NCBI GenBank assembly: GCA_964396165.1
Contig: CAYNEF010000001.1
Location: 65,990 to 129,989, forward strand
DNA: 64,000 bases
Reading direction: 5' to 3'
Origin: an uncultured Pseudobdellovibrionaceae bacterium
Lineage (GTDB): Bacteria > Bdellovibrionota > FAC87 > UBA2466
In this document: positions 28,552 through 35,351 of the stretch, one piece after another
How the letters are laid out: the number at the start of each line of letters is the position of its first letter
Position numbering within the stretch: position 1 is the first letter of the stretch
Program-made: the position numbers and the translations under genes
Notes under the pieces: generated by a model
Seen by the model: only the letters and a program-made list of their open reading frames with translations
What the model was told of the DNA's origin: nothing
The model's database searches: none

Positions 28552-28587
28552 TTAATATCTTAAATAGCAAAAAGTAAGGCTAGAAAA

Positions 28588-28803
28588 TTAGGGACGCTTC
28601 CGTCTCTTTAACCATACTAATACTTCCGAAGTTTGGTACCGTACCGCTCTCCCTATTTTAAAATAGGGAAGTCCGTCATCTACCATGAGTTTATTGATAT
28701 AGCTTACAGAGATAGCTAATCTTTCTGAAAGTTGATCCTTTGTAACCAAAAACTCTGACTCGCTGAATATGGGGCTAGGTTTTTGCACTTCAGTTGAACG
28801 CAT
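28588..28803 (-). CDS. AlpA/Xis-family excisionase-like DNA-binding protein
   Basis: LSERLAISVSYINKLMVDDGLPYFKIGRAVRYQTSEVLVWLKRR resembles the AlpA prophage regulatory HTH. Confidence 0.55.
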   Translation of the reverse strand: MRSTEVQKPSPIFSESEFLVTKDQLSERLAISVSYINKLMVDDGLPYFKIGRAVRYQTSEVLVWLKRRKRP

Positions 28804-29079
28804 TTTATTTCTTCAAAAAAAGATTTTTCACTCATATAGGAATTTATTGGCAACAGAAATCGAAAGTTTACAATTCCTCCCGCAACAACGCAACGAATCA
28901 TACCACCTTTTTATCACTAACTCCTAGCTAAGCGAGCCAAAAGAGAATCCGGAGGACTGAAGTCCTATTAGTTATGGAAGTGCCCGACTTACCTATACAA
29001 ATGAAAAGCACGGAAAGCTGGGTGGCAATTATTGGACTGATTTAAAGACAACTGGCCCGCTAACACTATTTAAGAAATC

Positions 29080-29499
29080 TTAGTCGGAGCTATGCTCCTG
29101 TGCGAAAGCTTCGATTCTGGATTTAAGTTCATCTCGAACTTTTCGAAAACGACTTAACTCTTCTTCTTCAGAGCCCCCTTTGCCAGCAGGATCAGGCAAA
29201 GGCCAATGCACTTTAGTTGCCCTAGAAACCATCTGTGGGCACACTTCTTCCGCGCATAAAGTAATCACATAATTTAAACTAGCAATGAATCCCGGATGCA
29301 AGTCATCGTATGACTTAGAGTGATGACTGGTAATGTCGATACCAATCTCATTCAGCGTCTTTATGGCACTGGGATTTACTTTCGACGGTGCAGATCCCGC
29401 GCTCTCCACTTTCACGCTTTTATCGAATATCTTTTTAGCAAGGCCTTCTGCCATTTGGCTCCTTGCTGAATTTGCGACACACATAAATAGAATATTCAT
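29080..29499 (-). CDS. arsC: Arsenate reductase, LMW-PTP (thioredoxin-coupled) family
   Basis: CX5R P-loop CVANSARS plus downstream Cys pair (LCAEEVCPQ). Confidence 0.85.
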
Positions 29500-30569
29500 A
29501 ATAGTTTCTCCTCAAAGCGTCTTTTTCTCAACCAAAAGGCAGCCTGGACAAGCGAGATCAGTACCGGCACCTCAACCAAAGGTCCTATAACAGTCGCGAA
29601 TGATGCCCCATGCGCTATTCCGAAAGTCGCAATCGCTACCGCAATCGCTAGTTCAAAGTTATTCGAAGCGGCTGTAAAAGATAGACTGGTTGCTTCTCGA
29701 TAATTCGCGCCAGCCTTTTGACTTAATATGAATGATAAAAAGAACATTACTACGAAATAGATGGCGAGTGGAATCGCTATACGTAAGGTGTCTACTGGTA
29801 AGGCGAGGACCGTATCCCCTTTTAAAGAAAACATAACCTCAATTGTGAATAAGAGTGCCGCTAAAGTTATCGGACTGATCCGAGGAATAAACTCCTTGTC
29901 GTACCAATCAATTCCTTTTGTAGGTCGCAAGATAAGTCTTGTAATAAAACCAGCCGAGAAAGGGATGCCTAGGTAAATACCTACTGATTTTGCGATATCC
30001 CAAATCGTTACATGCAATTGTAGACTTTGGAGTCCTAACCAACTTGGAAATAGAGTTAAAAAGAGATAGGCATAGAAAGGAAAGAATAGGATTTGAAAAA
30101 TAGAATTAAGAGCGACGAGCCCGGCGCAGTACTCGGCACTTCCTTCCGCAAGTTCATTCCATACGATAACCATGGCTATGCAACGGGCAATTCCCATTAG
30201 CATTAACCCTGCCATATACTCAGGTTTGTCTTTTAAAAAAATAATGGCCAGAAAAAACATGAGCAAGGGTCCGATAAGCCAATTTTGAATTAGGGAGAGA
30301 GCTAGGATTTTTTTATTACGGAAAACCTCTCCTAATTTTTCGTACTGCACCTTCGCCAAAGGGGGATACATCATAAGGATCAATCCTACGGCGATAGGAA
30401 TTGAAGTCGTTCCCAAACTAAATTGAGTAAGGGCTTTCCCCAGTTGTGGCGCAAATACACTTATGACTAACCCCAGGCCCATGGCCAAAAAAATCCAAAG
30501 GGTTAAGTATCTATCTAAAAAAGAAAGTTTCTTGGTTTTCATGGCAGGTATCATTGGCATTAGCAACAC
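29496..30569 (-). CDS. acr3: Arsenite efflux permease, ACR3 family
   Basis: 357 aa, 10 TM, ACR3-like conserved segments. 4-bp overlap with arsC. Confidence 0.85.
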
Positions 30570-31000
30570 TTAGCGGCTGTTGAACAAGCGTTTGCTTTTG
30601 GAACCAACCTTGGCGGTTCTGTTCCGACCGCGGGTAACTGTTCGTGTACAAAAAAGACTTCCCATGAGTTCCCATCCGGATCTTGAAACCAAAATTTGTC
30701 TTGCTTCGCAAAGCAGCAATCCGTTGCTTCCTCTATCAACGTTGGGATGTTTTTCGCAGAAAGATTTTTTTGCCACTCCTTCACTTCATCAACGCTCTCG
30801 ACCTCAATACCAAGATGGTTCACATGACTTGCTTTTCTGCCATCTACCGCTTCATGCATGGCAAAGTTCAGAGCTAGCGTCTTTAAATCAAATTTTGCAT
30901 AGGTTGCAGATTGTTTTTGAGGTTCTACTCCAAATACAGTTCGATAGAAATCTACTGATTTTTTTAAGTTCAATACATTAATAGATAGATGTGGTCTCAT
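30560..31000 (-). CDS. VOC/glyoxalase-fold protein with vicinal Cys pair (ArsI-like C-As lyase / CadI-like)
   Basis: Start taken at MRPHLSIN with RBS aaggag 6 nt upstream. TDCCFA vicinal cysteines, C-terminal CSTAAKCC. Confidence 0.55.
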
Positions 31001-31010
31001 TCGGTCTCCT

Positions 31011-33385: not shown

Positions 33386-33420
33386 GGTTGCACCGAGGGT
33401 TGCACCAAGGTTGCACGAGA
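33386..33420. repeat. Three tandem copies of a 12-bp unit GGTTGCACC(G/A)AG
   Basis: Seen directly, ~110 bp upstream of the tRNA-like gene inside an ORF-free AT-rich stretch. Confidence 0.6.
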
Positions 33421-33532
33421 TCCCAAGAAAGACCGAAATTAGCCGAAAAATTCCGAAGGAAGGTACGTTTGACAGACTGGCCTAACCCATAGTAATTATT
33501 GTTTTAAGTTAATTGTATTGGACAGTTAATGA

Positions 33533-33604
33533 TGCGAGGAGTTGTCCTGGTACTTCGGGCTCATAACCCGAAGGTCGTAGGTTCAAATCCTACCCCCGCA
33601 ACCA
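33533..33604 (+). tRNA. tRNA-like gene, anticodon CAT (Met/Ile2), encoded CCA
   Basis: Hand fold: anticodon stem tcggg/cccga with loop cTCATAa; T-arm gtagg-TTCAAAT-cctac; acceptor 3' strand ccccgca + A + CCA. The 5' acceptor tgcgagg has one mismatch and the D-arm is non-canonical by eye. Confidence 0.5.
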
Positions 33605-33676
33605 ATCTTTAACCTTTGAGAAAAACGTCGAATGCAGATATTCCGGTCGAGATCTGCTGCAGGTAAATTACATTCG

Positions 33677-35047
33677 CTAAGGTCTAAAAATACCACCAGT
33701 GTTGATTGTTCCACTGGAATCTTGTCCTCCAAACACTACCATCTTGGTGCCCGTCCATATTGCGGTATGAGCGTTGCGGATAGAGGGAGCAGTCGTAGTA
33801 GTAATTGTCGTCCAGGAGTTAGTAGTAGGATTAAATAGTCCGCCGGTGTTGTTATACACAGTGCTTCCGTCATCCCCTGCAAATACGAGAAGCTGAGTAC
33901 CTGTCCAAATACCTGTATGATAATAACGAATGCTTGGGGCGCCGGTAGTTGTAGTGAGAGTCCAAGAGTTGGCGCTTAAGTCATATACGCCACCTGTATT
34001 GATTCCACTTGTACCGTCCCACCCTCCAAACACCACCATTTTTGTCCCAGTCCAAACAGCACTATGTATCCGACGAATGTCCGGAGCACCTGTAGTGGTA
34101 GACAGCGTCCAGGTATCTGTCGCAGGATCATATGCGCCACCCGTATTTAAGAAAAGGCCCGCGCCTCGATCGCCTCCAAATAGTAAAGCTTTTTCGCCTG
34201 TCCAATTAGCAGTGTGATTTGCACGTATGCCAGGAGCACCTAACGTAGTCGTAGCTGTCCATGTATCGGTTGCGGGATTATATAGTCCACCCGTGTTTAC
34301 CCTCCCACCACCACCTCCTCCTCCGTGCACAAACATTTTACTTCCAGTCCATGTAGCCGTATGTAACCGGCGAATGCTAGGTGCGGCAGTTGTCGAGAGT
34401 GCACTCCAAGTATCAAGTTGCGGATCATAACTGCCACCCGTATTGAGATAAGCCCCATTGTATCCACCAAAGACAAGCATCTTAGAATCTGTCCAAACTG
34501 CAGAATGGTATGCACGAATATCGGGAGCACCGGTTGTAGTAATCTCTGTCCAAGAGTCAGTAGATGGATCGTATGCCCCTCCAGTATTGAGATAACTACT
34601 TGCAACTCCCTGTCCTCCGAACACTAATACTTTTGAGCCTGTCCAGACTGCCGTATGCACATAGCGAATAGCTGGAGCGCCCGTGGTCGTACTGGAAATC
34701 CACTTGGCAAAATAAGTAAATAAACCAGTGCCGGTTCCGCTTTGAGTATCCGGATTAGTAACGGTGATGTCAGCACTTCCTGCCGTGCCGCCTGGAGTTG
34801 TACACGTAATGGTGTAGTAATTGACGATCGTGGGTGAAGTACAGGGACTGCCTGCTACAGTTACTGTTGCATTGAGAGAAAAACCGAGGCCGGTTATTGT
34901 AATAACTGTTCCGCCAAAAGTGGAATCAGTCTCTGGGGTCACGCTAGTTACGGTAGGCGCTGGTGCAATAGTGCTTGATGAACTAGTTACTCCATTGCCA
35001 CAACCAGATATTAGTAAGAGATTTAAAAAAAAATAAACTATCTTCAT
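33677..35047 (-). CDS. Lipoprotein with IPT/TIG domain and about seven Kelch-like beta-propeller repeats
   Basis: Lipobox LISGCG. IPT-like TVTSVTPETDSTFGGTVITITGLGF. Repeats GAP.IR..HTA.WTG.KM.VFGG...NTGG.Y.P.TD.W. Confidence 0.7.
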   Translation of the reverse strand: MKIVYFFLNLLLISGCGNGVTSSSSTIAPAPTVTSVTPETDSTFGGTVITITGLGFSLNATVTVAGSPCTSPTIVNYYTITCTTPGGTAGSADITVTNPDTQSGTGTGLFTYFAKWISSTTTGAPAIRYVHTAVWTGSKVLVFGGQGVASSYLNTGGAYDPSTDSWTEITTTGAPDIRAYHSAVWTDSKMLVFGGYNGAYLNTGGSYDPQLDTWSALSTTAAPSIRRLHTATWTGSKMFVHGGGGGGGRVNTGGLYNPATDTWTATTTLGAPGIRANHTANWTGEKALLFGGDRGAGLFLNTGGAYDPATDTWTLSTTTGAPDIRRIHSAVWTGTKMVVFGGWDGTSGINTGGVYDLSANSWTLTTTTGAPSIRYYHTGIWTGTQLLVFAGDDGSTVYNNTGGLFNPTTNSWTTITTTTAPSIRNAHTAIWTGTKMVVFGGQDSSGTINTGGIFRP

Positions 35048-35325
35048 CATTTCGGTTAGACGCATATTTTTTAAGTCCTGCTTATTTAAAAACTAATGTA
35101 TCTATATCGTCTCCTCGGAGAATCTTATTTATAGTTGGATAATGCGAATATAAACACAATTCTGGTACGAACGGTAGAGCTGCTGTGGGCACCTCAACGG
35201 GGAGGGCAATTACCAAGTTGAGGTGTGAGGTGGTGGGCCGATGTCGATTTTCCTACTCCCGAGCTGCCATGATTTAGACAAGAAGTAATCTTACTAAGGA
35301 CAAAGTCAAAAGATCTAAATCCTGT

Positions 35326-35351
35326 GGTTCAAATCCTACCCCGCAACCAAT
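35326..35351 (+). repeat. 26/27-bp direct repeat of the tRNA 3' end (att-like); partner at 33580..33606
   Basis: GGTTCAAATCCTACC(C)CCGCAACCAAT occurs twice in the same orientation. The second copy lacks a foldable T-stem, so it is a partial copy. Confidence 0.55.

Follow-up and report, generated by a model that had tools for sequence, protein, structure and literature searches.

Does a tRNA-like sequence with a repeated 3' end delimit a genomic island, and on which side of it did the mobile DNA lie? This question is raised by the segment at 28560-35351 of a 64-kb stretch of DNA (the window, by which we mean the whole stretch analyzed), which holds a tRNA-like sequence, an arsenic resistance (ars) operon, a RES-Xre toxin-antitoxin (TA) cassette and a small gene of the HTH_17/excisionase family. 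The initial annotation had read it as one island between a tRNA-like gene and a copy of that gene's 3' end, from which the integrase had gone. Our analysis instead points to a mosaic: Probably, the tRNA-like sequence is the stranded right attachment site (attR) of an element specific for the initiator tRNA gene (tRNA-fMet), the element lay to its left, and the integrase and the left attachment site (attL) were lost or are located outside the window. On this evidence we favor an ordinary relic, the decayed remnant of a tRNA-linked island, over a single island.

The pseudo-tRNA-fMet, its arm and the second repeat

The following features, all on the plus strand, form the presumed attachment site:
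33357-33532, plus strand: attachment-site P-arm, assigned by homology to the metagenomic contig L119
33357-33365, plus strand: CCCGACGAG box of the P-arm, also in L119
33386-33416, plus strand: three GGTTGCAC direct repeats with spacings of 12 and 11, conserved with L119
33444-33473, plus strand: 30-nt block CGAAAAATTCCGAAGGAAGGTACGTTTGAC, conserved with L119
33483-33497, plus strand: P-arm motif TAACCCATAGTAATT
33533-33605 (tRNA-like part to 33604), plus strand: pseudo-tRNA-fMet, read as attR core from Rfam and the comparison with L119

As a match to the tRNA family the sequence at 33533 holds, since Rfam aligns 33533-33601 with 39.8 bits (gathering score 29). As a gene it does not: ARAGORN called no tRNA in the window, the Rfam alignment lacks the D-arm (12 unaligned nucleotides for 15 model positions) and shows an A:C mismatch in the acceptor stem, and the minimum free energy fold is not a cloverleaf. 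A functional initiator tRNA has a cloverleaf with a D-arm, a paired acceptor stem and a C1xA72 mismatch; at 33533-33604 these hallmarks are missing, and position 1 is a U that is paired with A72. From the anticodon stem to the CCA, the sequence fits an initiator tRNA perfectly: The anticodon is CAU, and the anticodon stem retains three G-C pairs. The 5' third is degenerate. In other words, a degenerate, element-type 5' part (33533-33554) is joined to a perfect 51-nt block (33555-33605, anticodon stem to CCA plus A; TCGGGCTCATAACCCGAAGGTCGTAGGTTCAAATCCTACCCCCGCAACCAA). At the junction, CCTGGTACT directly abuts TCGGG, a derived arrangement that is common to the pseudo-tRNAs of the window and of L119. 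In the arm, the repeat cluster is seen 3 times, whereas 0.00 occurrences of the paired pattern would be expected.

The significance of this arrangement emerges from the comparator. A scan of JGI metagenomes with the aberrant D-arm/anticodon junction CCTGGTACTTCGGGCTCATAACCCGAAGG returned one contig, L119, which carries an intact tRNA-fMet at 385-461 followed by 8.6 kb without an integrase. Among the ORFs of this 8.6-kb unit that were scanned, Pfam matched a TetR regulator, an HTH_3 protein and, weakly, a hydrolase-like protein; by eye, the HTH_3 protein and its neighbor look like a TA pair of the MqsRA type. Positions 8872-9099 of L119 align with 33379-33605 of the window at 83% identity (E=1.7e-58): The stretch repeats the CCCGACGAG box, three (A/G)GTTGCAC repeats, the 30-nt CGAAAAATTCCGAAGGAAGGTACGTTTGAC and a pseudo-tRNA with the same derived junction, and the similarity stops directly after CCAA. 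Within L119, the intact tRNA and the pseudo-tRNA form an exact direct repeat of ~51 nt (TCGGGCTC...CCAA), and TTGCAC repeats lie just inside both ends of the unit, including just downstream of the intact tRNA; the P' motif is TTGCACAATAGTTGCACC. Judged from its sequence, the unit carries an att core and arm repeats at each end and is without an integrase. Directly after the pseudo-tRNA, a tyrosine integrase gene (Pfam 9e-29; PHROG 1, 5e-64) is followed by an HTH_17-like gene and then by the beginning of one that is primase-like by eye alone. These belong to a second, integrase-bearing element in tandem with the integrase-less unit. Window positions 33357-33605 are thus homologous to the right end of an element bounded by direct repeats.

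Differences between the two loci are informative as well. Their T-stems differ in a compensatory manner (GTAGG/CCTAC in the window, GGAGG/CCTCC in L119), the intact tRNA of L119 has the T-stem of its own pseudo-tRNA, and the second repeat of the window also reads CCTAC; the 3' part of each pseudo-tRNA apparently matches its host. Because the 5' acceptor strands of both pseudo-tRNAs are mispaired and differ from each other, the two sequences are not under selection as tRNAs. Moreover, because the same derived sequence occurs in two unrelated contexts, the arm and the degenerate 5' part are read as element DNA.

These observations bear on the simplest explanation, in which no mobile element was ever involved and native ars and TA genes stand beside a second initiator tRNA that is functional and has a conserved promoter, the repeat being due to chance. 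Two findings fit it, the native composition of the ars genes and an Rfam score over the gathering threshold. It is now very unlikely, given the missing D-arm, the mispaired acceptor stem and the negative ARAGORN result, a 17-nt exact repeat with 0 expected by chance (see below) and an L119 homologue that is a direct repeat of a real tRNA and precedes an integrase.

To the right of the pseudo-tRNA, two further features have to be considered:
35326-35351, plus strand: shortened second copy of the tRNA 3' end (from T-loop to CCA plus AT, one C missing), from a repeat search
33677-35065, minus strand: gene for an IPT/TIG and Kelch beta-propeller lipoprotein (Pfam Kelch and TIG)

The recurrence of the 27-nt tRNA 3' end is real: GGTTCAAATCCTACCCC occurs exactly twice in the window and extends to GGTTCAAATCCTACCCC(C)GCAACCAAT, 27 nt at 33580-33606 versus 26 nt at 35326-35351, with one indel between the copies. 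What fell was the unit that these sequences had been thought to bound, since the repeats enclose the Kelch gene as the only gene (33607-35325) and the ars operon and TA cassette are located 5' of the tRNA-like sequence. Upstream of 35326-35351, neither Rfam nor local alignment detected tRNA-like or P-arm-like sequence, and this second repeat is probably what a separate, older integration at the same tRNA left behind. The Kelch gene itself contains seven direct repeats of 147-150 nt (33726-34657, minus strand), which are propeller blades and not a separate feature. A foreign origin of this gene, which its high GC content had suggested, was rejected, since the excess is confined to codon position 2 (GC2 0.605); GC at the third codon position (GC3, 0.365) is native and the codon-usage distance typical.

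Two readings take the pair of repeats at face value. In the first, 28560-35351 is a single island, now without its integrase, that is delimited by a tRNA gene and the duplicate of that gene's 3' end; the HTH_17 gene, the TA cassette and a resistance operon do adjoin a tRNA-like sequence of which a part recurs. What contradicts it is the location of the two repeats, both of which lie at the right. An element that targets a tRNA always lies 3' of the intact target gene, so the ars/TA block, on the 5' side, cannot be an island between the tRNA and the repeat. In addition, nothing tRNA-like or att-like marks a left boundary at 28.4-29.1 kb, and the TA cassette is a separate unit; we regard the single island as highly improbable. 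In the second, the element is on the right side only: The tRNA-like sequence would be the attL of a 1.75-kb Kelch segment reaching to 35326, and ars and TA genes would be ordinary chromosome. This is textbook geometry, with an island 3' of a tRNA and a partial repeat of the tRNA end at its far end. It is nevertheless quite unlikely, as it leaves unexplained the 230 nt upstream and the degenerate 5' half, which are conserved with L119 and there end a left-side element. GC3 and codon usage of the Kelch gene are native, and the second repeat is shorter and begins at the T-loop, unlike the 51-nt block. The general lesson is that a tRNA-like match and a repeat alone do not delimit an island; the side of the element must be read from the att arm.

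The putative insertion and its missing parts

For the favored stranded attR, we propose the following course of events. An element with a tyrosine integrase would insert into the initiator tRNA (tRNA-fMet) gene by means of an attachment site (attP) in which a block of ~51 nt, spanning anticodon stem to CCA plus A, is identical to the tRNA. Ahead of this block, attP would hold an arm with three GGTTGCAC repeats, the presumed binding sites of the integrase or of a recombination directionality factor, and a degenerate 5' part of tRNA-like sequence. Recombination with the chromosomal tRNA would restore an intact tRNA on the left, at the element's far end, and the right end would then consist of arm, pseudo-5' half and host 3' half, as in the window. 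Because 33357-33605 would be the attR junction, the element would have lain left of 33605, where the cargo-like DNA comprises the RES-Xre addiction cassette, the merR-arsI-acr3-arsC operon and the HTH_17 gene. The repeat at 35326 would stem from a separate, probably older event at the same tRNA and now enclose the Kelch gene alone. Three parts of this scheme we infer from the sequence only, namely protein binding to the repeats, the membership of the ars operon and the HTH_17 gene, and the loss, as opposed to the distance, of attL and integrase.

That the integrase is missing had been noted at the outset and was confirmed. A domain search over plausible open reading frames (ORFs) of >=110 aa across the window detected neither Phage_integrase nor any other recombinase domain, and tblastn with the L119 integrase against the 64 kb gave E >= 0.63 only. 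The counterpart of attR, an intact tRNA with the core as direct repeat at the other end, was likewise not found in the window: ARAGORN, Rfam and a copy search located core and tRNA 5' half nowhere else in the 64 kb, save for the short repeat at 35326, which is on the wrong side, and Rfam with a relaxed threshold added nothing credible within 32886-35620. With integrase, attL and intact tRNA all missing from the 64 kb, the remnant would be fixed in place.

In the contig collection searched, the source genome is represented by Logan contigs of run SRR12487046 alone (L081, L137 and L138), which match the window at 100%. The breaks between L081 and L137 fall at 33584, where one contig stops, and at 33576, where the other begins; with k=31, they point to a repeat node that spans exactly 33555-33605. 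Because the contig breaks imply this node, the reads should contain another exact copy of the 51 nt, presumably the real tRNA-fMet.

Could the attR at 33605 then close a large intact island of >33 kb, with tRNA-fMet, P' arm and integrase past the left edge of the window and the metal genes as cargo? Such an island would agree with the richness of the left 28 kb in metal-efflux genes, with the additional copy of the 51-nt block in the read set and with a source contig of 168 kb that extends beyond the window. Yet the 33 kb contain no genes for conjugation, replication or recombination, composition and codon usage of the left half are uniform, trypsin-like proteases and a two-component system are among its genes, and the only Logan contig that reaches left adds 1.1 kb. 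We consider the large island unlikely.

Several points also weigh against the stranded attR. It was derived from a single comparator locus, and there are no close relatives in which to see a presence/absence polymorphism. In the 33 kb to the left, ARAGORN, Rfam and alignments revealed neither an intact tRNA nor an attL or P'-arm. By composition, the ars operon and the HTH_17 gene are native, they have no link to the att arm, and the HTH_17 gene faces outward, in contrast to the order int-HTH_17 of L119. For the TTGCAC-arm element, the cognate integrase is unseen, as the L119 integrase is part of the neighboring element, whose arm is without TTGCAC. Finally, the reading of the repeats as arm sites is insecure because a TTGCAC pair also forms the TA operator described below.

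The notion of a decayed or trans-mobilized element without integrase gains from L119, where the homologue of the att arm and pseudo-tRNA ends an integrase-less element beside an integrase-bearing one; the unit originally proposed for it does not stand. TTGCAC-arm units with a pseudo-tRNA could represent an undescribed family of integrase-less elements in Bdellovibrionota-like bacteria that target tRNA-fMet. By analogy with L119, they could move in trans or in cis via the integrase of a tandem partner, and the copy in the window could have stayed competent, with attL beyond the window. In viral contigs, relatives of the L119 integrase reach 23-34% identity at most, and two exact arm patterns had zero matches. 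The triple GGTTGCAC pattern was discarded for these contigs, where all its matches were tandem coding-type 12-nt repeats and irrelevant.

The genes around the attachment site

Profile matches from Pfam and NCBIfam bear out the genes first listed for the segment, an Xis-like gene, a MerR-ars operon and a RES-Xre pair. Adjacent to the arm lies the TA cassette:
31663-33098, minus strand: RES-Xre toxin-antitoxin cassette (Pfam; identity limits versus contig L083)
31666-32460, minus strand: RES toxin gene, 264 aa (Pfam RES 46 bits, cut-off 23.2)
32463-32879, minus strand: Xre antitoxin gene (Xre_MbcA_ParS_C 23.5 bits, slightly under the cut-off of 24.5)
32940-32956, minus strand: operator-like AATTGCAC, twice, as paired repeat upstream of the antitoxin
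33041-33068, minus strand: near-consensus promoter of the cassette (promoter search)

The antitoxin gene precedes the RES toxin gene by 2 nt, as in a RES-Xre type II TA system, and this two-gene order is kept in five contexts. Over 1433 nt, the cassette is 87.7% identical to L083 9363-10795 (run SRR13867568), where the genes around it are unrelated; the identity is limited by the RES stop codon at one end and by position 33098, 220 nt upstream of the antitoxin, at the other. Three more distant contexts are isolated two-gene units in the chromosome without mobile-element genes. Because the identity to L083 ends at the cassette edges amid unrelated genes, the cassette is read as an independent mobile module, separate from the att-linked element, and the sequence comparison suggests that it moved laterally in recent time. 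In the same run, the malectin protein of L082 is 62% identical to that of the window, versus 88% nucleotide identity for the cassette; L082 and L083 do not necessarily stem from one genome.

When the P' and P arms of L119 were aligned to every non-coding stretch of the segment, the sole result was a 24-nt match in the TA promoter: TTGCACAATAATTGCACCTATATT (32933-32956, minus strand) and the L119 P' arm TTGCACAATAGTTGCACCATTATT (534-557, plus strand) are identical at 21 of 24 positions (z=6.7), and the TTGCAC core is common to the TA operator pair and the triple repeat of the P-arm. This likeness could be due to chance, to a shared DNA-binding protein or to a promoter relic. An inverted P' arm within the TA promoter was set aside, as the antitoxin gene in the more distant cassettes of L084 and L139 is preceded by a paired motif that is comparable but differs in sequence (less clear in L140); the 24-nt match looks like the antitoxin operator.

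Farther left follows the arsenic operon:
29080-31409, minus strand: merR-arsI-acr3-arsC operon of four genes (NCBIfam/Pfam profiles)
31423-31454, minus strand: MerR-type promoter/operator with TTGACT, ACTCCGTAC-TATG-GTACGGAGT and TAGGGT
31011-31409 (to 31505 with a longer ORF), minus strand: merR-like gene (MerR/ZntR-like 129 bits, under cut-off)
30560-31000, minus strand: arsI (ArsI/CadI 137 bits)
29496-30560, minus strand: acr3 (ACR3 433 bits)
29080-29499, minus strand: arsC, LMW-PTP ArsC (ArsC thioredoxin type 125 bits, under cut-off)

In gene order, the junctions are gaps or overlaps of 10 nt, 1 nt and 4 nt, and gene calls on the Logan contig L137 agree. The promoter contains a perfect dyad, ACTCCGTAC-N4-GTACGGAGT, between TTGACT and TAGGGT, which are spaced by 20 nt; we take this dyad to resemble the half-sites of the Tn501 mer operator. 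The best solved relative of the regulator is the Bacillus MerR 4ua1, of whose three Hg-binding cysteines two are kept and the Cys79 equivalent (Cys79/82) is missing; the C-terminus has four cysteines, two of them extra relative to MerR. An ArsR/SmtB-family repressor is absent from the operon, and the MerR-family protein is its sole regulator. This regulator may therefore be an arsenic sensor of non-ArsR type: As an activator, it could sense As(III) or methyl-As(III) via its C-terminal four-cysteine cluster and switch on the operon. In the literature searched, with incomplete coverage, we found no description of a MerR-type ars regulator. A merR-led arsI-acr3-arsC operon is a cheap and testable lead toward such a sensor. 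These more novel readings, an undescribed tRNA-fMet family without integrase and a MerR-type arsenic sensor for the ars operon, are improbable in our view.

At the left end of the segment lies the HTH_17 gene:
28588-28803, minus strand: HTH_17/excisionase-family small DNA-binding gene, 71 aa (Pfam HTH_17)

Its product matches Pfam HTH_17 with 29.5 bits (cut-off 27; E=9e-7) and PHROG 66 'excisionase and transcriptional regulator' with E=5e-6; the score for the TIGR01764 excisionase, 25.3 bits, is under the cut-off of 28.8. The gene begins 35 nt beyond the terminator of an RND operon (28517-28548). A mobile origin is hinted at because the best homologue (57% identity; L088) is the first gene past a tRNA-Gln, at an island edge. 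The gene may be a mobile-element leftover; its part in the same element as the att arm is not established, and similarity to the HTH_17 protein of L119 is not detectable. At L088 9633-13784, the tRNA-Gln and the HTH_17 homologue are followed by an AEP-TOTE primase-helicase and an AbiEi/AbiEii pair; no integrase was found in the 10 kb of sequence available, which makes this another tRNA-linked island without integrase.

The composition of the segment had been described as dropping sharply. The drop is modest: Against a window mean of 42.3% (0.423), GC falls to 0.32-0.39, and it does so at 31.5-33.3 kb only, that is, in the RES gene and a 650-nt non-coding spacer. With a GC3 of 0.302 (z=-2.4) for the RES gene, the RES-Xre cassette is the only part of clearly atypical composition among the genes of the segment. 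The ars genes and the HTH_17 gene have GC values of 0.40-0.44 and GC3 values of 0.36-0.42, which are typical of the window, and by composition the ars operon looks native. A tetranucleotide outlier at 32.5-38.5 kb is driven by the amino-acid composition of the Kelch and malectin genes.

Relatives are remote. The six window proteins that an exact sequence look-up retrieved (malectin, ArsC, ArsI, HTH_17, RES and the RND pump) are singletons at 90% identity among ~15 billion proteins, and an exact look-up of RND pump and ArsC in a contig index gave zero matches. With the nearest organism, the window has just the malectin gene (62% identity) and the TA cassette in common; this one malectin orthologue has another context with no tRNA there. 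A scan of genome contigs with the RND pump yielded 80 loci, the best one 69% identical and from a genome of 55% GC, and synteny in these 80 loci does not go beyond the OEP-RND pair.

To the left of the segment, the gene for the RND pump comes straight after one for an outer-membrane factor (23976-28392, plus strand); a periplasmic adaptor gene was not recognized, and two small ORFs upstream of the pair (22932-23294 and 23373-23837) have no Pfam match. The OEP-RND adjacency is kept in metagenome-assembled genomes of Leptospirales and Bdellovibrionota (L001-L031). Overall, the left half (1247-11691 and 19394-28392) is crowded with metal-homeostasis genes, comprising Fur, two OEP/RND systems, a two-component system, a SulP-carbonic anhydrase fusion, a P-type ATPase and an ECF sigma factor; mobility genes are not among them.

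Comparison with known systems

The remnant belongs to an already known kind, and its significance beyond annotation is small. Mobile elements of predatory Bdellovibrionota-like bacteria are poorly described, though, and the locus would offer a first glimpse of tRNA-fMet-targeting integrative elements and integrase-less derivatives in these hosts.

With standard ars operons, the window shares arsI-acr3-arsC, the usual arsenic genes; it differs from those under ArsR control in lacking ArsR. In Gram-positive mer operons, merR is the first gene, an architecture that the leading merR-like gene and the mer-like dyad promoter mirror. The TA pair resembles the RES-Xre systems ParST and MbcTA in that the antitoxin gene comes first and RES and Xre/MbcA/ParS C-terminal domains are present, but its toxin has a long N-terminal extension, its NCBIfam scores are far under the cut-offs, and it is known from sequence alone.

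The attP of mycobacteriophage L5, which uses a tRNA-Gly, carries a long block of tRNA identity from the anticodon loop to the 3' end. The window likewise has a block of ~51 nt, from the anticodon stem to past the CCA, and the displaced copy would be the pseudo-tRNA at attR. Williams, in 2002, reportedly distinguished sublocation classes of tRNA integration sites; the repeat at 35326, which starts at the T-loop, points to a different event or class. P4-like islands combine a tRNA-targeting tyrosine integrase with an int-alpA(HTH_17)-primase module. The second element of L119 corresponds to this order, with integrase and HTH_17-like genes after the tRNA junction and then a primase-like start. 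The window shares an HTH_17 gene, arm repeats and a tRNA-derived core with such islands; it has neither integrase nor primase, and its HTH_17 protein is not detectably similar to that of L119.

The closest parallel is provided by cis-mobilizable elements (CIMEs), which lack integration and transfer genes and retain both attL and attR (PMC5704250). The window differs from a CIME in that attR alone was found, and attL could lie past the left edge. CIMEs and integrative elements form accretion arrays, for example those related to ICESt1/ICESt3 in Streptococcus thermophilus (review PMC5704250, citing Pavlovic 2004, Bellanger 2011). In comparison with these arrays, the host of the window is Bdellovibrionota-like, the target is tRNA-fMet, and mobilization is hypothetical. 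As in CIME accretion, the integrase-less segment of the window ends in what appears to be the att site of a site-specific element, and L119 has exactly the layout of such arrays, its integrase-less unit and an integrase-bearing element standing side by side in tandem at a single tRNA.

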